From: a phage
Length of the DNA: 64,000 nucleotides
Reading direction: 5' to 3' (one strand)
Sequence record: PZ386977.1
Shown here: piece by piece, positions 1,998 to 34,069 of the stretch
Layout: every line of letters begins with the position of its first letter
Numbering within the stretch: position 1 is the stretch's first letter
Translations under genes and position numbers: made by a program
Notes under the pieces: model-generated
The model's database searches: none
Told to the model about the DNA's origin: nothing
What the model saw: the letters and a program-made list of their open reading frames with translations, nothing else

Positions 1998-2121
1998 TTT
2001 AAATTCTCAATTCGAGATAATATTTAGTAGCCACGTTCGTCTGAATTTCACCTTCTTTCGACAAGTCTCTCGGTTGTAGGCTACCGCTTAGAAGAGTGTT
2101 CTCTTCATATAGTTATTTATA

Positions 2122-2454
2122 TCACTTATAAAGACACGGAATAGCTTTATAGTGGCATGTTACGAATTTCTGTTTAATTTCTTTAGGTTGTTTAAGTCCC
2201 AAAGCCACAAATGGATGTGGAACATTTCGAATTTGTCCAACTGGTAGTGGAGTCAAATCACCGACTTCAACAAAACCTTCAGGAACATCAGGACCTACAG
2301 AATGAACTACACATAGTTCAGGAACTTCACCTTGAACACGTTTACCAATCACAAGTCCTGATTCGGTAACTTCTTCATCACCTGCTTGAGCGGGTTCAGA
2401 AACCAGAATGACATATTCACCAACAGCACGAATTGGGAGTTGTACTTCAGACAT
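2122..2454 (-). CDS. 31: gp31 GroES-like co-chaperonin for capsid protein folding
   Basis: 110 aa, [34 protein letters not shown]... matches T4 gp31. Confidence 0.9.
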
Positions 2455-2820: not shown

Positions 2821-3391
2821 AAAAGTTTCGGATTTGTTCCCAATTCAGAGAACGAAGATTATTACGAGAGTACTGAATTACTTCAATACCGGCTTGTTTA
2901 AGAATGTCTGCCCAATTTTCAGGAGATCTGTCATATAACTCAGCGTATACAACCTTTTTAATACCTGACTGCGTAATAGCTTTAGTGCAATCAGGACATG
3001 GAGAAAGCGTAGTATATAACGTAGCACCTTCAATAGAATTACCTTTACGAGCTGCAAATAAAATTGCATTCAATTCTGCATGTATTTCGTTATTAGCAGA
3101 CCATGCACTATGAGCAGCCCGATGTTCTTTAGCTAAAACAAAATTATCTACCCGTCCAAATGCTGTAGTGCCTTCTTTATGTCCAGCAACGATGGCTGGG
3201 ATTGGTTTATTCTTCAACCAACCATTTTCAGATGCATGTTCGCAACAGTTAACGCCACCTGCAGGTGAACCGTTATATCCAGTAGAGATAATGCGTCCAT
3301 CTTTTTCAATGACGGCACCAACTTTCCATGAACAACATTTTGATTCTTGAGAAATCAGATATGCAATCTGAAGGTATGTGCTAGCTTTCAT
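2810..3391 (-). CDS. cd: dCMP deaminase
   Basis: 193 aa; HAELNAI and PCxxC zinc-binding deaminase motifs; T4 cd size. Confidence 0.9.
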   Translation of the reverse strand: MKASTYLQIAYLISQESKCCSWKVGAVIEKDGRIISTGYNGSPAGGVNCCEHASENGWLKNKPIPAIVAGHKEGTTAFGRVDNFVLAKEHRAAHSAWSANNEIHAELNAILFAARKGNSIEGATLYTTLSPCPDCTKAITQSGIKKVVYAELYDRSPENWADILKQAGIEVIQYSRNNLRSLNWEQIRNFCGE

Positions 3392-4383
3392 TATTGAACC
3401 TTATTAATATAAGTTAACAGCTCTTTAGTTTGTTCCCAACTGATGCACGCATCGGTAACGGAAATGCCATAGGACATATTATCAGAAATTTTTTGATTTC
3501 CTTCATGTAGGAACGATTCTATCATAATTCCTTTGACCAAATCATTAGCTGCTAAATTTTTACCAATACCAATTTGATTGCTATAATGCCCTTCAGCGTT
3601 TGCATGGCTACAGTCAACCATTACATAATGATTCAGACCTACTGCCCTTGCTTTGTTAGAAGCTTCTTGAATATCAGAAGAATGATAGTTCGGGCCGTTG
3701 GTCCCGCCACGCAATACGATATGCGTATTCTGATTACCTTCAGCTTCAACAATGCCTACAGTACCATCGACGTCCATACCCATATACCGATGAGGCCAGG
3801 CGGCACTATACATCGCGTCTGTAGCTACTTTAATAGAACCATTGGTTGCGTTCTTGAAGCCTACGCACATCGGTAGACCTGAAGCAATTTCACGATGTGT
3901 CTGACTTTCAGTCGTACGGGCGCCAATAGCAACCCATGAGAAAATACCAGAAAGATACTTAATCGTGAATGGGTCTAATACTTCAGTTGCTAATGGAAGT
4001 CCCATACGTAGAAGTTTACGACACAATGTTCGTGCAACTATAAGACCGTGGTTCATATCAAAACTTCCGTCAAGATATGGATCATTTACAAGACCTTTCC
4101 AACCTACGGTAGTTCGAGGCTTTTCAAAATAAACGCGCATCACTAACAGAACATTAGGAAGACGAGTTTGAAGTTCAGCCAGACGTTTGCCGTATTCAAC
4201 AGCAGCAATAGGGTCATGAATTGAACAAGGACCTACAACAATAAGTTTGCGTGGGTCTTCACCATTCATAATCGAATTAACTTGTTCGCGATGAGAAGCC
4301 ACTTGTGATGCGTAAGCTTCCGACAAAGGAATAATCTCAGCCAGTTCTTTTGGAGAAATAAGTTTTCCGACGACAGGTAACAT
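3391..4383 (-). CDS. 3-deoxy-D-arabino-heptulosonate-7-phosphate (DAHP) synthase, class I (AroG/AroF-like)
   Basis: 330 aa; LIVVGPCSIHD, VMRVYFEKPRTTVGWKGL, IGARTTESQ, GFKN motifs as in E. coli AroG; stop overlaps cd start; AAGGA SD. Confidence 0.85.
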   Translation of the reverse strand: MLPVVGKLISPKELAEIIPLSEAYASQVASHREQVNSIMNGEDPRKLIVVGPCSIHDPIAAVEYGKRLAELQTRLPNVLLVMRVYFEKPRTTVGWKGLVNDPYLDGSFDMNHGLIVARTLCRKLLRMGLPLATEVLDPFTIKYLSGIFSWVAIGARTTESQTHREIASGLPMCVGFKNATNGSIKVATDAMYSAAWPHRYMGMDVDGTVGIVEAEGNQNTHIVLRGGTNGPNYHSSDIQEASNKARAVGLNHYVMVDCSHANAEGHYSNQIGIGKNLAANDLVKGIMIESFLHEGNQKISDNMSYGISVTDACISWEQTKELLTYINKVQ

Positions 4384-4503
4384 AACAATCCTTAGGAGAT
4401 ATAAACAGATTCTGATTCAACAATACCTTTAACCGGATTAGACAGGCTAAGTTGGTAGTGCTCAGATTTATGACCATTCTCGATAGTAATGAGATAACTC
4501 TCA

Positions 4504-4740
4504 TTATAGTGTTCCGTATACTCGAGTTGCTTCAACAAGACCATCACTGCCTAATTTAAGATTAGTAATTTGGTCACCATCTTTAGGATTAACGATTACG
4601 AGAAAAGAACGTGGAGATTCTTGAATAACTCGTAATGTTGCATCTTGGAAACGTTCAGACACTTTATTGATGAGTGCTTGAGCAAATTCTTTTACTTTAA
4701 TCTGAAATTCGTGTACTGTAATTGGGTTTTCACTTAGCAT
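4504..4740 (-). CDS. hypothetical protein (78 aa)
   Basis: ORF track; promoter upstream. Confidence 0.55.
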   Translation of the reverse strand: MLSENPITVHEFQIKVKEFAQALINKVSERFQDATLRVIQESPRSFLVIVNPKDGDQITNLKLGSDGLVEATRVYGTL

Positions 4741-4768
4741 TTCTATTTCCTCATTTGTTGGTAGAGTT

Positions 4769-4798
4769 ATAGTATCACAACTCCACCGTGTTGTAAAC
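4769..4798 (-). promoter_or_regulatory. early promoter (GTTTAC -35, TACTAT -10, 18-nt spacer)
   Basis: gtaaac 4793-4798, atagta 4769-4774. Confidence 0.5.
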
Positions 4799-4800
4799 CA

Positions 4801-5076
4801 TTAAATTGCTTTGCATTCAATTTTTTGTGTACCGAAATTGATATCACATTGGATAACTAAATCGCCGTCAAGATCAAATACCACTATGACGTGTGCAGAC
4901 CCAGGGAGAAGAGTAATAGCAATAGAATCTACTTGGTCTGGGAGCAAAGCATTGAGTACATGAGTTAGTTGAGCATGAACTCTGAGTTCGGCTGCATTAT
5001 CAAGCACTTCAAACATATTATTAGCAATAATCTGACTGAAGACTACCTTTACAATTTCAGAATAAGTTGGGAACAT
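4801..5076 (-). CDS. hypothetical protein (91 aa)
   Basis: ORF track. Confidence 0.55.
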   Translation of the reverse strand: MFPTYSEIVKVVFSQIIANNMFEVLDNAAELRVHAQLTHVLNALLPDQVDSIAITLLPGSAHVIVVFDLDGDLVIQCDINFGTQKIECKAI

Positions 5077-5083
5077 AATTACC

Positions 5084-5308
5084 TCAGTGTACAGTATTTA
5101 CTTTAACTCGAACAACAAATCGCTCGGTCGGTTCACCTACAGGAACAAACTCTACATGATATTCGCCTTTGTAACGAGTATTCAGATCATTACGAATTCC
5201 TGCGAGTTTGTTAATTAATGTAGGACTCATATTAAGTCCCACTAGTTTACGAAGCATTTTGTATGCTTCATCTTCGATTTCATGATGTTTATCGTACATA
5301 GTTTTCAT
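5084..5308 (-). CDS. hypothetical protein (74 aa)
   Basis: ORF track. Confidence 0.55.
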   Translation of the reverse strand: MKTMYDKHHEIEDEAYKMLRKLVGLNMSPTLINKLAGIRNDLNTRYKGEYHVEFVPVGEPTERFVVRVKVNTVH

Positions 5309-5479
5309 TTAACCATTCAATTGCCTGGTCGACGTTATCAAATATACCACCGTCCAAACGTTCTTCATGCTCATAGTCCAGCACATCAATACCGAACTGT
5401 CCATTTACTAAAGGCCAGGCAACAAACAAATATTCTTTATGCCGTTCAATGGCCTCAATCACTTCATATAATCGTTTCA

Positions 5480-5480
<1 letters not shown>
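5289..5480 (-). CDS. hypothetical protein (63 aa)
   Basis: ORF track; abuts pseT stop. Confidence 0.5.
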
Positions 5481-6566
<1,086 letters not shown>

Positions 6567-28811: not shown

Positions 28812-29471
28812 ATGGCAACACCAAAAGTATCATTTTCGCCTAGTGATATTCTATTTGGGTTGCTAGATCGTATTTTCAAAGATAACGCTACTGGAAAGGT
28901 TTTAATGTCCCGAGTAGCGGTAATTATTCTTTTGTTCCTAATGGCACTAATATGGTACAAAGGAAGTATTTTGCTGGATTATTATGTAAGAGCTAAGTAT
29001 GATACTTATACTGAAATAATCCAAAAAGAACGAGCTTTACGTTTTGAATCTGCGGCTCTAGAACAACTGCAAATAGTTCATATCTCATCTGGTGCAGATT
29101 TTAGTGCTGTGTATTCTTTCAGACCTAAAAACTTAAATTATTTCGTCGACCTTATAGCTTATGAAGGCAAACTGCCTAGCACAATTTCTGAAAAGTCCCT
29201 TGGGGGATTCCCAGTAGATAAAACGGCCAATGAATATATAATTCATTTAAGTGGCCGTCATTTCTCGTCTAAATCAGAATTTGCATTTTTGCCTACAAAA
29301 TCTAAGACTGCCGAACTTTCTTATATGTATAGTTGTCCATACTTTAATTTGGATAACATCTACGCTGGAACTGTGACGATGTATTGGTATAAGGGGAGTA
29401 ATATACTTGAGGAAGATCGCTTAGCAGCTATATGCAACCAAGCGGTCCGAATACTAGGAAGGGCTAAATAA
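28812..29471 (+). CDS. t: holin T
   Basis: 219 aa; single N-terminal TMD (VAVIILLFLMALIWY) and large periplasmic domain; matches T4 T. Confidence 0.9.
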   Translation: MATPKVSFSPSDILFGLLDRIFKDNATGKVLMSRVAVIILLFLMALIWYKGSILLDYYVRAKYDTYTEIIQKERALRFESAALEQLQIVHISSGADFSAVYSFRPKNLNYFVDLIAYEGKLPSTISEKSLGGFPVDKTANEYIIHLSGRHFSSKSEFAFLPTKSKTAELSYMYSCPYFNLDNIYAGTVTMYWYKGSNILEEDRLAAICNQAVRILGRAK

Positions 29472-29744
29472 TTAGTTGTTAGAATACATCGCTAAATGAC
29501 GATAAATATTTTCAAAACCTTCATTGAATTCACTAATCAGTGTTTTCTTTTCTTCGGCAGTTAAATTTGTAATTAGTTTTCTAAAAGAATTCTGATTTAG
29601 CTGCCGACCATCTTTTTTAATTCCAATCTCATTCAAGAAACCGATAAAACTTGCTCGGTCTTCAACAATATCTTCCCTAGAGAATTTAATCAAAATAGAA
29701 GCAATAGTAATAATTTCGCGTACGATTTCAATGTCTTTATTCAT
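29472..29744 (-). CDS. asiA: AsiA anti-sigma70 factor
   Basis: 90 aa; MNKDIEIVREIITIASILIKFSREDIVE... matches T4 AsiA; stop abuts t stop. Confidence 0.9.
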   Translation of the reverse strand: MNKDIEIVREIITIASILIKFSREDIVEDRASFIGFLNEIGIKKDGRQLNQNSFRKLITNLTAEEKKTLISEFNEGFENIYRHLAMYSNN

Positions 29745-29777
29745 AACGTTTTATTCATTCCACTTAGTTGATATGGA

Positions 29778-29807
29778 TATAGTACCATTATCAGTGTTGA
29801 TTGTAAA
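29778..29807 (-). promoter_or_regulatory. early promoter for asiA (GTTTAC -35, TACTAT -10, 18-nt spacer)
   Basis: gtaaac 29802-29807, atagta 29778-29783. Confidence 0.5.
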
Positions 29808-29952
29808 CGGCTTTTTCTACGCTTTTAACGTAATCAATGTAGTCTTCCTGTTCATACGAGTGTAAGGCCAAGAATGGAACTAATAGTTCATTATAGACTA
29901 AAGCCTCACGCTCACGTTCGGCCTCTACTACGTTCTGAAGATTATGACTCAT
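29791..29952 (-). CDS. small acidic protein (53 aa)
   Basis: ATG at 29950-29952 with AAGGA SD; track ORF 29791..30006 is extended upstream over the arn-like gene. Confidence 0.5.
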   Translation of the reverse strand: MSHNLQNVVEAEREREALVYNELLVPFLALHSYEQEDYIDYVKSVEKAVYNQH

Positions 29953-30241
29953 ATTGTTCCTTATAACTATCAATGTAGTCCTGTATGTCGAAGAATGACA
30001 TTTCATATTCTAGGACATTAAGAGCCCGTTCTTCAGTATAGTCAGAACCAAAGACGATAGTGATTTCACCAGGCTTCATATGATTGAAATCGACACTAAA
30101 AGGAATACGAGAACATACTTCGTCTGCCATATCTACGATAACACTACGACACACTTCTCGGTTAACCTGATAAAGCTCTGCAAGTTCTTCACATCGAATA
30201 ACAAGTTCAGTGGCAGGATTTTCTTTGATTTTAGTAAACAT
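29942..30241 (-). CDS. arn: acidic protein, Arn (anti-restriction nuclease)-like by position and composition
   Basis: 99 aa, strongly acidic, next to asiA as in T4; identity not verified. Confidence 0.45.
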   Translation of the reverse strand: MFTKIKENPATELVIRCEELAELYQVNREVCRSVIVDMADEVCSRIPFSVDFNHMKPGEITIVFGSDYTEERALNVLEYEMSFFDIQDYIDSYKEQYES

Positions 30242-30315
30242 AGTCTTTACCCTTATGTTTTTGTTTACGCTTAGATTGAAGTTCTGATTTCTTCTTGTCC
30301 TTATGAACAGAAGCC

Positions 30316-30543
30316 TTATTGAAATCGTGTTTTGCTACAAGATTGTTCATAATGATTTATAACCTCGTTTAAACATTTGTCTGTGAAAGAAAACTTTTTA
30401 GCCACAGAACATTCAATAATATGCTCTTTCAAATCTTTAGGGTCGGTATAACCCATCTCAGTAATAAAGTGGCGAATTAAAGCTTTATTCTTATCATTAA
30501 CAGAATTAAAATAATCTGCTTTAGAATCAATTATTCTCATCAT
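30316..30543 (-). CDS. hypothetical protein (75 aa)
   Basis: ORF track. Confidence 0.5.
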   Translation of the reverse strand: MMRIIDSKADYFNSVNDKNKALIRHFITEMGYTDPKDLKEHIIECSVAKKFSFTDKCLNEVINHYEQSCSKTRFQ

Positions 30544-30808
30544 CTAATTTCCTTAATTGATATTGCAACGAGCTAATAATTTCTTCGTTCATTTTAATAT
30601 ACATGTCGCGCAAGAAAGGTTTTAACCCATCACGAATAATTGCTAACGTATCACCTTTACATAAATTAACCAAATAAGGATGATCTAAAGCATCCCAACC
30701 AGGCTGATTAGCATACATACCATAATTTTCTTCCATCATAGCATTCAGGCGTTTGATATGATTAATGTGGGCTTCAATAGCATCAATCTGGAGTTGTTTA
30801 AGATTCAT
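30527..30808 (-). CDS. hypothetical protein (93 aa)
   Basis: ORF track. Confidence 0.5.
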   Translation of the reverse strand: MNLKQLQIDAIEAHINHIKRLNAMMEENYGMYANQPGWDALDHPYLVNLCKGDTLAIIRDGLKPFLRDMYIKMNEEIISSLQYQLRKLDDENN

Positions 30809-31269
30809 TAGTAAAGGTCCTCAGAGTAAAGTTCTTTTTCATTACCACCACGTTCAATACGTACTTGTCCAGCGTAAGTTGCAATAATCATTGCTTCTTC
30901 ACGTGTCCAATAATTACTATATTGGTCAATAAACCCTTGGTCATCATCACAAACTTGTTGAGTAACTAATTGAGGTTTAACTACATCTAAAACTTCTGCC
31001 ATATCTTTAGAATAATGACGAGCACCTGGAATAATAAGAGTTCGTCCATCTTTTAATTTAAAACGGTTGGCTGCGCAGACAATTCGTCGTTGATACTTTT
31101 GGTTTTCATCCCAATACAGAGTCTGCCAACAGATTTCAGGAACTTCGTCTAAAACATTTTGTTCTGTATATTCACCACCGTAAGAAGCTAATTTAGCAGC
31201 CAGACTTTCCGGAGTCTCACGCGACAAAGCTTTATCTAACAGAGCTAAACGTTCTTTAAAAGTTTTCAT
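30808..31269 (-). CDS. hypothetical protein (153 aa)
   Basis: ORF track; start/stop overlaps with neighbours. Confidence 0.55.
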
Positions 31270-31595
31270 TTAAACCATTCCTTAACACGTTGCCAAATAG
31301 ATTTTTGTGATTGTTTATTTACACCAATCGAACGAATAACCGGTTGTGACTGCTGATATTCTTTATAATCTTCTTTATAGATTTCGTAAGCTGCATCAAC
31401 AAATGAACTGATCGCTGCCATAAAGTTTTTACGAAGGCCAAATGGCGCGTCATTATTTTCACGAATAACCGTATATTGGCCTGCTTTAATCTTTACAATT
31501 GTCCCTAAATAAGCCCCGTGATACCAAATATCCCATCCTTCCTGAGTAGGTTCTGCACATTTACGAAGTTCGTTAATAATATTCAGCTTATTCAT
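31266..31595 (-). CDS. hypothetical protein (109 aa)
   Basis: ORF track. Confidence 0.55.
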
Positions 31596-31605
31596 TATGT
31601 ATTCC

Positions 31606-32238
31606 TCACAGTACGTTAGTTACAAGTGTAATGATTTCTTTGGACACATTAGGGAAGTCAATATAAGTATATTTACCACCGATCTTAATCTTAACATCAT
31701 TTTCAAGAGAAGTAAACAGCTTTGATTCAGTTTCTGACATGTTGTATGCAAAGATTCTAAGAGCGCCATCTCGTCGAATTTCAATTTGGCGAATGCCTAG
31801 AACTCGTTTAGCGAATCGAACTTCTAAGTTACTACGGTTTTCACCAATTTCTTTAACTTCAACTTTATCTTTAATATTTTCAAAAACAAAGTTTGCTAAT
31901 TCATGCATTTCAGGAGTAACTCCACGTGCTTTTCTGGTGTTACGTTTCTGAAGAAGTTCTGGAGCATTTTCTTGGGCAAAGAGGTCTGCAGCTTTTTGGA
32001 TAATATCCATTGCTTCGCCTGTTGCTACAAGTCCATCACCTGATTTTTCGACTAAACCTTTCTTAATCAATACACCAATGTTAGAGTTAACAACTGATGC
32101 ATTGTATTCTGCTTCCAGAGCTTCACGGACATTGGCAGCAGTGGTGAAGTTGTTCTTAATGATATAAACCATTATTGCAGCAGTTTTTTCATTCAGAGCG
32201 TTTTCAGAAGCTTTGATGATGTAAGTAACTTTAGACAT
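31606..32238 (-). CDS. motA: MotA middle-transcription activator
   Basis: 210 aa; MSKVTYIIKAS...NIGVLIKKGLVEKSGDGL matches T4 MotA. Confidence 0.9.
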   Translation of the reverse strand: MSKVTYIIKASENALNEKTAAIMVYIIKNNFTTAANVREALEAEYNASVVNSNIGVLIKKGLVEKSGDGLVATGEAMDIIQKAADLFAQENAPELLQKRNTRKARGVTPEMHELANFVFENIKDKVEVKEIGENRSNLEVRFAKRVLGIRQIEIRRDGALRIFAYNMSETESKLFTSLENDVKIKIGGKYTYIDFPNVSKEIITLVTNVL

Positions 32239-32304
32239 TTTATTTCTCCAAATTAGTATTTGTTTTGATAGGTCTATAATATCATGTTTGAAGCAAAAGT
32301 AAAC
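32231..32304 (-). repeat. direct repeat copy A (promoter + leader + first codons of motA)
   Basis: ttagacattttatttctccaa ... gttttgataggtctataatatcatgtttgaagca shared with 32550-32625. Confidence 0.8.
32276..32304 (-). promoter_or_regulatory. early promoter for motA (GTTTAC -35, TATTAT -10)
   Basis: gtaaac 32299-32304, ataata 32276-32281. Confidence 0.6.
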
Positions 32305-32341
32305 TTTATTTTGGGCTCTTTTTAAAAAGCCCTGGTAAAAT

Positions 32342-32557
32342 TTACAAACTCATTTCTTTAATAAGGCCAATAAGTTTTGCCTTTTTAGAACGAAGCTTTT
32401 CTAAATGACGTCCATTTGAACCGCGAACCACTAAAGAATTGATTTCAACTTCTAAGAAATTTAATTCTTTAACAAGTGCTTTACGAGGAGCATTCATACC
32501 AGGTTTAACTTTACCGAAACGAGTAGTTGTGTTTTGGGTTAATTTCATTTTAGACAT
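32342..32557 (-). CDS. hypothetical basic protein (71 aa)
   Basis: ORF track; begins MSKMKL, inside duplicated promoter cassette. Confidence 0.55.
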   Translation of the reverse strand: MSKMKLTQNTTTRFGKVKPGMNAPRKALVKELNFLEVEINSLVVRGSNGRHLEKLRSKKAKLIGLIKEMSL

Positions 32558-32625
32558 TTTATTTCTCCAATTTGGTTGTTTTGTTTTGATAGGTCTATAA
32601 TATCATGTTTGAAGCACATGTAAAC
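32550..32625 (-). repeat. direct repeat copy B
   Basis: Same 21-nt and 34-nt blocks as 32231-32304. Confidence 0.8.
32597..32625 (-). promoter_or_regulatory. early promoter (GTTTAC -35, TATTAT -10)
   Basis: gtaaac 32620-32625, ataata 32597-32602. Confidence 0.6.
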
Positions 32626-32651
32626 TGTTTTGTGAGAAAAAATGCACAAAA

Positions 32652-32667
32652 GGGAGCCGAAGCTCCC
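32652..32667 (-). terminator. intrinsic terminator GGGAGC-UUCG-GCUCCC + UUUUGUG downstream of gene 52
   Basis: Perfect 6-bp stem, tetraloop, T-run on minus strand. Confidence 0.7.
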
Positions 32668-32743
32668 TAATCGTGATTGTCCAACCAATACAGCCAAATC
32701 ACTAGTGCAGCTATTGCACCGATAAATCCTAAGGCTAGGGCAC

Positions 32744-34069
32744 TCAAAGTGCCTCCAAGTCTTTAGTGTACTCTGTCACAACATCAGTAGACTTCCAATA
32801 CTCATTTTCTTCTTTCTTAGCTTTAGCTTCTTCTGCTAGTTTACGTGCTTCATCGGAAGTGATATGGAAGATGTTAAGACCTACTAGTTTATCGACGTGT
32901 TCTTTGTACATTTCGATTTGTGCTAGCTCTTCAGTCAAAGCTTTACGGGTCTTGCCTTGAATCACAATTTCGCCGGCAATAACTTTTTTGATGAAGTGTG
33001 CCTTAGCAAAAGCCAGTTTAAATGCTTTTTCAGATTCAAGAATTTTGTTGTCGATACGTTTCTGAACGTAAGTCTTACGGACTTCAACAAAATCTTTGAT
33101 TAAGTCTACTACATTATCGTAGACAGCTAATTTACCCTTTTCATTAATCACTGTAATGTTTTGTGAACGACGTTCGATGAGACTAAAATCTTTCATGATT
33201 TTTTCATGACGTAGCTCTTCGTCATCTGGAAGCGAGTACTCTTTACGGAACTTCACCTTAAACCCAAAGCCGTGTTCACCACAATCATCTTCCCATGAGA
33301 TTAGACCTTTATCTTCTAATGGGTCAAGAACCTTACTCACATACGTTTCACGGTCGAATTTATATGGTATTTCAGTTATCTGCATTTGAGTGCGAGATGT
33401 GAACTTATATGTTCCGTGAATCTCGTACCGTCCATCAACTTCATGTACTTCACCACTGAATTCCGGGAATTCAACTTTTGGCTTAGTGACATTTTTACCT
33501 TGAAGAGCTTGTAATACAGCCTTTTTTACCGATTTAAAACTATGAGGCAGAATATTTGTTGCGTAACCGGTTGCAATACCAGATACACCATTCAAAAGAA
33601 CTGTCGGAACAATAGGAAGATAGAATTTTGGTGGAACGTGTTCTTTATCTTCATGAGCTGGAGCATATTCAGTATCTTTATAGACATTATAGAAATTTTT
33701 ACTTACACGAGCAAAAATATAACGAGATGCTGCAGCTTTTTGGACTGTTCGAGAACCAAAGTTGCCTTGACCATCTAATAGTGGATAGTTGTTGTTCCAT
33801 GTGTTAGCCATTAATGCACCTGCATCTTGTGCAGAAGATTCACCATGGTGATAACCTAAATCTGCAACACCGCCTGCAATTGACGCAAGTTTATGAAATT
33901 TTTCTTTATTACCACGAGCCAAATCTAACGCACGATGAACCACAAAACGTTGAACCGGCTTAAATCCATCAATCATGTTTGGGATTGCACGGTTTTCAAC
34001 GGTGTACATCGCATATGCTAAGGCTTCGTTATCAATAATACTTTTTAGATTACGAGAATTCAATTGCAT
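32744..34069 (-). CDS. 52: gp52 DNA topoisomerase II medium subunit (GyrA-like)
   Basis: 441 aa; MQLNSRNLKSIIDNEALAYAMYTVENRAIPNMIDGFKPVQRF...; active-site tyrosine context. Confidence 0.95.
   Translation of the reverse strand: MQLNSRNLKSIIDNEALAYAMYTVENRAIPNMIDGFKPVQRFVVHRALDLARGNKEKFHKLASIAGGVADLGYHHGESSAQDAGALMANTWNNNYPLLDGQGNFGSRTVQKAAASRYIFARVSKNFYNVYKDTEYAPAHEDKEHVPPKFYLPIVPTVLLNGVSGIATGYATNILPHSFKSVKKAVLQALQGKNVTKPKVEFPEFSGEVHEVDGRYEIHGTYKFTSRTQMQITEIPYKFDRETYVSKVLDPLEDKGLISWEDDCGEHGFGFKVKFRKEYSLPDDEELRHEKIMKDFSLIERRSQNITVINEKGKLAVYDNVVDLIKDFVEVRKTYVQKRIDNKILESEKAFKLAFAKAHFIKKVIAGEIVIQGKTRKALTEELAQIEMYKEHVDKLVGLNIFHITSDEARKLAEEAKAKKEENEYWKSTDVVTEYTKDLEAL

Follow-up and report, generated by a model that had tools for sequence, protein, structure and literature searches.

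In the phage sequence PZ386977.1, a group of small genes is packed between asiA (anti-sigma-70 factor) and motA (activator of middle transcription), and the question that this locus raises is whether those genes form a store of anti-restriction functions or a more mixed set. A first-pass annotation of the 64,000-nucleotide stretch analysed here (the window, to which positions refer unless stated otherwise) had described six uncharacterised small genes in the interval, and regarded them as a likely reservoir of anti-restriction or host-shutoff functions. The window belongs to a T4-like phage of the genus Mosigvirus (RB69-type), and by its sequence the interval is the Mosigvirus allele of the "arn operon" of T-even phages, a locus which is already well known. 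The explanation that we favour, with a probability of about 75%, is that this operon encodes a mixed host-takeover set, including an orthologue of the elongasome-modulating peptide Emp and a cryptic homologue of the T4 protein Arn.

The 2.9-kb interval is 98.9% identical at the DNA level to Escherichia phage phiEC1 and 97–99% identical to many RB69-type phages, and is matched by 758 phage records (148 of the 758 with at least 80% query coverage). Its nine genes form an uninterrupted minus-strand run, with motA first and asiA last. The open reading frames (ORFs) previously listed between these two (53, 75, 93, 153 and 109 amino acids (aa), plus an acidic one) and their tight overlaps (1–35 nt among neighbours in the run) are all present, but the count has to be raised from six to seven, as a 39-aa gene of the DUF7230 family had been missed. 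The annotated counterpart in T4 (asiA, asiA.1, arn, arn.1, arn.2, arn.3, arn.4, motA) is syntenic with the interval, and orthologues of Arn.1, Arn.2, Arn.3 and Arn.4 are present (73%, 40%, 83% and 75% identical to those of T4, respectively, as computed by BLASTP) in the order motA>arn.4>arn.3>arn.2>arn.1, in agreement with the earlier proposal that this is the equivalent of the T4 asiA-arn-arn.x-motA region. On sequence evidence the small ORFs are real genes and not chance ORFs, since each has an end-to-end match to a PHROG family (E = 1e-22 to 1e-73), the pooled ratio of nonsynonymous to synonymous polymorphism (pN/pS) per ORF is 0.00–0.27 in comparison with four close relatives, and the gene order is found again in 45 T4-like loci. 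A Shine-Dalgarno sequence of the GAGG/AAGGA type, at normal spacing, precedes every ORF start. Among 77 loci collected for carrying Arn.3 relatives, the island was mapped in the T4-like ones; the backbone motA>arn.4>arn.3>(arn.2)>(arn.1)>DUF7230 is kept across these, and the interval from DUF7230 to asiA is a variable slot of 222–1113 nt containing 0–3 ORFs. No paralogues of the island proteins were found elsewhere in the 64-kb window.

The acidic protein of the variable slot

The acidic protein of 99 aa (pI 4.3, net charge −12) occupies this slot, between DUF7230 and asiA.1/asiA, as does Arn in T4. Pairwise methods do not connect the two proteins: blastp gave no match to T4 Arn even at E ≤ 10, and tblastn of a phage collection with either sequence did not retrieve the other type. 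The Pfam scan gave no match to the 99-aa protein at E ≤ 0.1, the presence of the Arn family (PF22134) in the scanned set being unconfirmed. The 99-aa protein and T4 Arn each belong to a narrow family, that of the former having 6 clusters with identities of 79% or more. The window type is found in 179 phage records, including RB69ORF259c, and is nearly always annotated as "hypothetical", while the T4 type is found in 485 records, in which identity to T4 Arn is never below 88%; the two types are divided along genus lines.

The structure of the 99-aa protein was predicted with AlphaFold2 (AF2), without templates and from a multiple sequence alignment (MSA) free of Arn sequences. The top Foldseek match of the resulting model (predicted local distance difference test score, pLDDT, 85.5; predicted template modelling score, pTM, 0.71) is the crystal structure of T4 Arn (3wx4), which ranks first out of 350,542 PDB chains (probability 1.00, TM-score 0.67/0.68, 90 columns, 14% identity); the other PDB chains listed have TM-scores of about 0.3–0.5. 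A second line of evidence comes from the slot itself. The ORF directly after DUF7230 is often 86–99 aa long, carries a net charge of −9 to −16 and ends in (L/I/F)(E/Q)DY. The eight slot variants compared all fall within these ranges, with the C-terminal EDY motif and an invariant Gly in common, and the slot proteins form a BLAST-connected chain of intermediates which includes both T4 Arn and the window protein. When the profiles were enriched with these intermediates, hhalign aligned the two over 78 columns (probability 80%, P = 1.4e-5). A hidden Markov model (HMM) was built from the window type and relatives 30% identical to it, leaving out T4-type sequences, and searched against 2,405 ORFs; it retrieved each of the 8 T4-type Arns, with E-values of 5e-5 to 3e-4 and of about 6e-5 for T4 Arn itself, and every match below E = 1 outside its own family lies in the same slot, no unrelated ORF being among them.

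Predicted fold, profiles, synteny and composition thus agree, and together show the 99-aa protein to be a highly diverged homologue of T4 Arn, with the same modelled fold, in the same slot, and detectable by profile methods. The term "Arn-like" in the first-pass annotation was therefore correct as regards fold and distant homology (Foldseek, hhalign and HMM), although ordinary similarity by BLAST or Pfam could not have shown it. The two proteins resemble each other in length (99 aa in the window, 92 aa in T4), in net charge (−12 and −9) and in the C-terminal (I/L)(E/Q)DY motif. They differ in sequence, being just 14–15% identical, and N70 of T4 Arn has no obvious conserved counterpart in the window protein. 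A phmmer match of the 99-aa protein to the tandem dimer of the PP7 coat protein (E = 5e-4) was rejected, because the single-copy chain scores E = 0.8 and the tandem repeat doubles the score.

T4 Arn is a DNA mimic which blocks McrBC restriction of non-glucosylated hydroxymethylcytosine DNA, and which binds H-NS too (review PMC12707154). It also blocks the PUA-Cal-HAD defence system, an activity abolished in T2 Arn by the single N70S difference (PMC12871103). By analogy, the window protein may act as an acidic mimic which occupies the surface where McrBC and other modification-dependent nucleases bind DNA, and would then protect hydroxymethylcytosine DNA before, or without, glucosylation; its targets could alternatively be other DNA-binding defence proteins or nucleoid proteins. 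The proposed action is that of Ocr (T7) and ArdA (Tn916), which are also small, very acidic, early-expressed proteins that fill the sites at which restriction or defence enzymes bind DNA, but these are analogues only. The extreme divergence of the Arn slot among genera could reflect retargeting in an arms race.

Arn.4 as an Emp orthologue, and the Arn.3 domain

A further small gene with a recognisable role is arn.4. In a screen of 45 early proteins of Mosigvirus AV110 (bioRxiv 10.64898/2026.09.14.751387, a preprint of 16 September 2026), the strongest growth inhibitor was Gp94, a protein of 109 aa and 12.74 kDa encoded beside the MotA-like gp95. It gave lemon-shaped cells with mislocalised peptidoglycan synthesis, its two-hybrid partners were MreB and, more weakly, MreC and MreD, and its toxicity was partly rescued by MreB, MreD or MreBCD; it was renamed Emp, for elongasome-modulating peptide (bioRxiv 10.64898/2026.09.14.751387). 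The coding sequence adjoining motA in AV110 encodes 109 aa with a calculated mass of 12.74 kDa, in agreement with the published Gp94/Emp, and window Arn.4, also directly downstream of motA, is identical to it at 104 of 109 residues (95%), with no substantial difference between the two. Window Arn.4 is thus the Emp orthologue, and binding of MreB, MreC and MreD as well as growth inhibition can be expected of it by analogy. Because this 95% identical protein has been characterised, the description of the small genes as uncharacterised is outdated for Arn.4, whose orthologue targets MreBCD. Gp92 and gp93, the neighbours of gp94 with no known function, did not inhibit growth in the same screen (bioRxiv 10.64898/2026.09.14.751387), and are taken here as the orthologues of Arn.2 and Arn.3. 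A host-takeover function, as proposed for the interval, is accordingly documented for one member, the Arn.4 orthologue.

The 75% identity between window and T4 Arn.4 covers the C-terminal 67 aa. The N-terminal 42 aa of the 109-aa form are conserved in T4 too, where the start codon is ATA and not ATG, and the annotated 68-aa T4 Arn.4 is probably, from this comparison, a start-codon mutant or a mis-annotation. The ATG start of Arn.4/Emp is present in the window and in all six other Tequatrovirus-type loci listed, the T4 reference having ATA; positions 3334–3460 (minus strand) of the T4 locus L002 are homologous to window positions 31470–31595, with the upstream 41 codons kept in frame.

Arn.3 carries a widespread phage domain. 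The precomputed PF26092 assignment is carried by Arn.3 homologues of 62–97% identity, and the window protein very likely belongs to this family according to its sequence; the Pfam scan matched PF26092 to neither window Arn.3 nor any family member scanned, the model being apparently absent from the scanned set. A profile search of 1.84 billion representatives gave 3,467 matches at E ≤ 1e-3 and 1,412 at E ≤ 1e-10 (counted as clusters at 50% identity), many of which are stand-alone proteins of 90–100 aa, and the domain is spread over T4-like, jumbo and small marine phages. No Pfam domains were found in ten long proteins carrying the domain (225–434 aa), and no partner recurs among the 128 genes found next to Arn.3 in non-T4 phages, a mix that includes helicases, NADAR, AAA and NinG. 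Structure prediction had been proposed as a way of finding DNA-mimic folds in this interval; it did so for the 99-aa protein, through the match to 3wx4, but found no solved structural relative of the Arn.3 domain in the PDB. In BFVD, the Arn.3 model matches uncharacterised phage proteins and, partially, three proteins annotated with a "large polyvalent protein associated domain" (LPD). In these proteins, from uncultured phages, it aligns to regions with a probability of 0.98–0.99 and 17–25% identity. The TM-scores are however partial (0.35–0.37 of the query), and Arn.3 matches none of the Pfam LPD families, so that the link is a lead and not a membership. The modelled similarity hints that the domain may also serve as a module within injected multi-effector polyvalent proteins.

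The invariant residues of Arn.3 form a constellation of Arg-His, Gln-Gly-Phe-x-Asp, Arg, Gln and Glu. Such a conserved polar arrangement suggests catalysis or ligand binding, and it is because of this Arg/His/Gln/Asp/Arg/Gln/Glu set that Arn.3 could be a small enzyme or a ligand-binding domain; it would be non-toxic to the host. Two bolder readings can be put side by side. Arn.3 would be the T-even member of a huge unstudied family of phage domains, with the invariant constellation as its active or ligand-binding site, directed at a signal of host immunity or at a molecule derived from nucleotides, and would so represent a counter-defence enzyme or sponge of a new class; in parallel, the Arn slot would be a swappable DNA-mimic specificity cassette, whose Mosigvirus variant blocks another defence system than T4 Arn does. 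Judged jointly, these two readings are speculative and appear rather doubtful.

The remaining genes and the expression of the operon

The features of the interval are collected in Table 1. The identities of MotA and AsiA are confirmed by sequence. MotA matches MotA_activ (PF09114) at 2.4e-39, MotCF (PF09158) at 2.2e-8 and PHROG 1345 at 5e-90, and is 51% identical to T4 MotA; AsiA is 73% identical to that of T4. In the place of T4 motA.1, which encodes a 49-aa membrane protein, the window has a gene for an unrelated, very basic protein of 71 aa (32342–32557, minus strand; pI 10.9; PHROG 6200), preceded by its own early-type promoter-like site (32597–32624, minus strand; TTTACA, 16-nt spacer, TG-TATTAT).

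Table 1 Genes and putative promoter sites from asiA to motA, by position in the window
Feature	Position	Strand	Basis
asiA, anti-sigma-70 factor, 90 aa	29472–29744	−	Pfam AsiA (PF09010) at 2.4e-32
Promoter-like site upstream of asiA	29779–29807	−	Putative; TTTACA, 17-nt spacer, TG-extended TACTAT
AsiA.1-position ORF, 53 aa, acidic	29791–29952	−	PHROG 5245
Cryptic Arn homologue, 99 aa, predicted DNA-mimic anti-restriction protein	29942–30241	−	Fold, profiles, slot
DUF7230 protein, 39 aa, lysine-rich, basic	30231–30350	−	Pfam PF23876, PHROG 1359
arn.1 orthologue, long form, 75 aa	30316–30543	−	Identity to T4 72-aa ORF, PHROG 4452
arn.2 orthologue, 93 aa	30527–30808	−	Identity to T4 Arn.2, PHROG 1844
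arn.3 orthologue, 153 aa; N-terminal helical region and ~95-aa conserved C-terminal domain (PF26092)	30808–31269	−	
arn.4/emp orthologue, full-length form, 109 aa	31266–31595	−	Identity to T4 Arn.4 and AV110 Gp94
motA, activator of middle transcription, 210 aa	31606–32238	−	Pfam, PHROG, T4 identity
Sigma-70 early-type promoter-like site upstream of motA	32276–32303	−	Putative; TTTACT, 16-nt spacer, TG-extended TATTAT

Searches of Pfam, NCBIfam and PDB sequences returned nothing significant for Arn.1, Arn.2, Arn.3, Arn.4 or the 53-aa ORF. The identity of Arn.2 to T4 Arn.2 extends over 90 aa (E = 4e-20), with PHROG 1844 matched at 9e-42. Arn.1 matches PHROG 4452 over positions 1–72 at 9e-40; its T4 equivalent is a TTG-initiated ORF of 72 aa, the annotated T4 arn.1 having just 43 aa. 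This long form, which overlaps arn.2 by 17 nt in the window, is kept in all genera examined, with a Shine-Dalgarno sequence and an ATG, GTG or TTG start. A search for related loci with the single Arn.1 sequence gave one locus only. In RefSeq the product name "anti-restriction nuclease" is carried by Arn.1, and in some GenBank records by Arn.1–Arn.4 (records bearing the label are NC_055781.1, OP870147.1 and OR352940.1), while the gene with the true Arn fold usually appears as "hypothetical protein"; the source of the nuclease label is the arn.x gene naming (PHROG 4452), not evidence.

The DUF7230 gene overlaps both of its neighbours, arn.1 at its end and the Arn gene at its start. Of the small genes it is the one detected with the greatest consistency across the T4-like loci examined. 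Each of the 45 loci with both asiA and motA has it (64–97% identity), and in the window it matches PF23876 at E = 5e-13 (49.3 bits, with a gathering cutoff of 27) and PHROG 1359 at 6e-22. Four further PHROGs, which differ in length, also match its N-terminal ~22 residues, and the T4 copy (positions 2084–2200, minus strand, of L002; 79% identical) is unannotated in the reference genome. The 53-aa ORF at the AsiA.1 position matches PHROG 5245 over positions 1–53 at 2e-31. Its start, which has an AAGGA Shine-Dalgarno sequence, fits the family profile, whereas an upstream ATG that would give 71 aa does not. With T4 AsiA.1 it has just the N-terminal MSHNL module in common. This module, MSHNLENV(I/V)E.QR..E, is common to at least four otherwise different proteins of 50–112 aa encoded directly upstream of asiA (the window ORF and slot ORFs of loci L024, L026, L029, L031 and L037, from different genera), which suggests, at the level of sequence, either recombination at a conserved gene start or a common N-terminal function.

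The nine co-oriented, overlapping genes are probably translationally coupled, and would most likely be transcribed early, from the sigma-70 promoter upstream of motA and without an internal terminator. The putative site lies within a 103-nt intergenic gap, and was called on its position and the quality of the match. The sole minus-strand terminator-like hairpin of the scan (30696–30677) falls within the arn.2 coding sequence, and terminator-like sites are no commoner than in shuffled sequences; no convincing terminator thus emerges within the cluster. Searches for MotA boxes gave no middle promoter in the island, boxes with one mismatch occurring only within motA, and an Rfam scan of positions 29000–33000 gave nothing above noise.

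In T2, the host small RNA ArcZ pairs with the arn.2 3′ end and shields the transcript from RNase E, which acts in a "70-nt intergenic region" between arn.2 and arn.1, and mutation of GCAUU changes expression (bioRxiv 10.64898/2026.06.19.733364). With an ArcZ sequence confirmed by Rfam (RF00081, 120.8 bits), a duplex scan of T4, a close relative of T2, also gave the arn.2 3′ end as the best site (−23.6 kcal/mol). The window operon resembles that of T2/T4 (arn.4-arn.3-arn.2-arn.1-arn) in its gene order, in the orthologous Arn.1–Arn.4 and in having the Arn-type gene last before asiA.1/asiA, but differs from it in these regulatory elements. The pairing site CCAGGGAAAT at the arn.2 3′ end is confined to Tequatrovirus-type loci, including T4/T2; at the aligned position the window reads TGAGAATAAT, with CGCCACTTT in place of CGGCATTTT, and GCATT, corresponding to the GCAUU motif of RNase E, is absent, this motif too being limited to loci of the Tequatrovirus type. 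The best ArcZ duplex in the window operon (−27.7 kcal/mol, at about 31224; 31195–31224, minus strand) lies inside arn.3, where it encodes SRETPESLA. It is stronger than the T4 arn.2 site, but since it is equalled by about four distinct sites elsewhere in the 64-kb window, it is not significant and is probably due to chance.

The "intergenic region" of T2 corresponds to the first ~29 codons of the long Arn.1 (67–75 aa), a peptide conserved across genera (window positions 30457–30543, and 2307–2393 of the T4 locus L002, both on the minus strand), and the GCAUU motif falls in its codons for Arg-His-Phe.

Two of the mapped loci depart from the common arrangement. In locus L010 (IMGVR_UViG_2974739009_000001, 3017–5750), motA and gp52 are of the Mosigvirus type (100% and 99% identical to the window, respectively), while arn.2, arn.1, arn, asiA.1 and asiA are of the T4 type. 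It looks like a natural recombinant, and its mixed types therefore indicate that the island is exchanged between genera, with a breakpoint around arn.4/arn.3. Locus L016 (4001–5320) has an apparent tandem duplication of arn.3, the copies being 81% and 78% identical to that of the window, along with arn.2 fragments and split matches to asiA and holin; this reflects either rearrangement of the phage or an artefact of assembly.

Alternative readings and the meaning of the locus

Several points weigh against the explanation of the operon as a mixed host-takeover set with an Emp orthologue and a cryptic Arn homologue. The AF2 model of the 99-aa protein comes from an alignment of little depth (7 sequences, with identities of 77% or higher), and its five versions range in pLDDT from 68 to 85.5. 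The Foldseek E-value for 3wx4 is just 1.8e-3, and the first hhalign comparison, made with narrow profiles, gave P = 0.012 and a probability of 3.5%. Pfam PF22134 is unmatched, as judged from a scan that lists no match, and both DNA mimicry and McrBC as a target are extrapolated from T4 Arn at 14–15% identity. Outside this protein, gp92 and gp93 are equated with Arn.2 and Arn.3 solely by their position in the text of the preprint; the promoter calls are consensus matches, in a number no higher than in shuffled sequence; and the arn transcript is classed as middle in the T2 preprint, yet no MotA box is seen here. The low identity to Arn, the missing BLAST and Pfam matches, the modest Foldseek E-value and the shallow MSA would also suit a protein that is Arn-like by convergence on a common small alpha/beta sandwich and that has an unrelated role, for instance as a modulator of transcription or of the nucleoid together with MotA and AsiA, and such a role fits the fold as T4 Arn also binds H-NS. 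Convergence nevertheless appears quite unlikely when the TM-score of 0.67 in both normalisations is set against values of at most 0.5 for every other PDB chain listed, when hhalign and the HMM provide independent sequence-profile evidence, and when BLAST-significant intermediates, all in the same genomic slot, link the two types and have the EDY motif and the invariant Gly in common.

The idea that the whole island is an anti-restriction or anti-defence reservoir, in which each of the small ORFs (Arn.1–4, DUF7230 and the AsiA.1-like ORF) neutralises another system, draws on the co-transcription of these genes with Arn in T2, on the speculation about counter-defence in both recent preprints, on the hypervariability among genera of the Arn slot and the adjacent AsiA.1 slot, as would be expected of arms-race genes, and on the match of the Arn.3 model to regions of LPD-annotated phage proteins. 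It is unlikely, given that Arn.4/Emp, the only member with experimental data, targets the elongasome and not a defence system, that Arn.3, Arn.4 and DUF7230 are conserved backbone genes and not variable cargo, that no known anti-defence family is matched in Pfam, NCBIfam or PDB, and that the "anti-restriction nuclease" labels are a matter of name propagation. The reservoir envisaged in the first-pass annotation is thus not borne out for Arn.1–Arn.4, DUF7230 and the AsiA.1-like ORF, for which no such activity is shown in the literature or here, and the operon would rather encode mixed host-takeover factors than a pure anti-restriction battery. It could also be argued that the smallest ORFs (39 aa, 53 aa and the N-terminal extension of the 75-aa one) are untranslated and form a regulatory spacer at the RNA level, as proposed for the 70-nt region of T2; in the T2 preprint, the spacer between arn.2 and arn.1 is regarded as non-coding and mutating GCAUU alters expression, and the reference annotation of T4 has a short arn.1 and no gene at the position of the 39-aa ORF. 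This is very improbable, because the N-terminus of the long Arn.1 (…DYFNSLN…K..I..FI.E.GY) is conserved in amino acids across genera while start codons and nucleotides change, and because the window keeps the peptide though both the ArcZ site and GCAUU are absent; DUF7230 is moreover a Pfam family with a pN/pS of 0.07, and the 53-aa ORF matches its PHROG from end to end.

What is new in this locus, which is otherwise ordinary and present in over 700 phage records, is a cryptic member of the Arn family together with a set of corrections to annotation. Arn.1 has about 70–75 aa and Arn.4 has 109 aa, the DUF7230 gene is missing from the T4 annotation, and the label "anti-restriction nuclease" sits on the wrong genes in RefSeq. 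A caveat also follows for the ArcZ/RNase E model in T2, as its "intergenic region" is conserved coding sequence. The September 2026 study of the near-identical Mosigvirus AV110 names Arn among the T4 proteins without an AV110 homologue (bioRxiv 10.64898/2026.09.14.751387); according to the evidence presented here one is present, hidden by divergence, and it predicts how RB69-type phages may cope with McrBC-like, modification-dependent nucleases. More broadly, an Arn superfamily is defined: the slot proteins compared comprise at least eight sequence types, every one of them acidic and encoded in this one slot. Since the specificity of this DNA mimic flips with a single residue between T4 and T2 Arn, the set of slot proteins would constitute a natural panel for mapping it.

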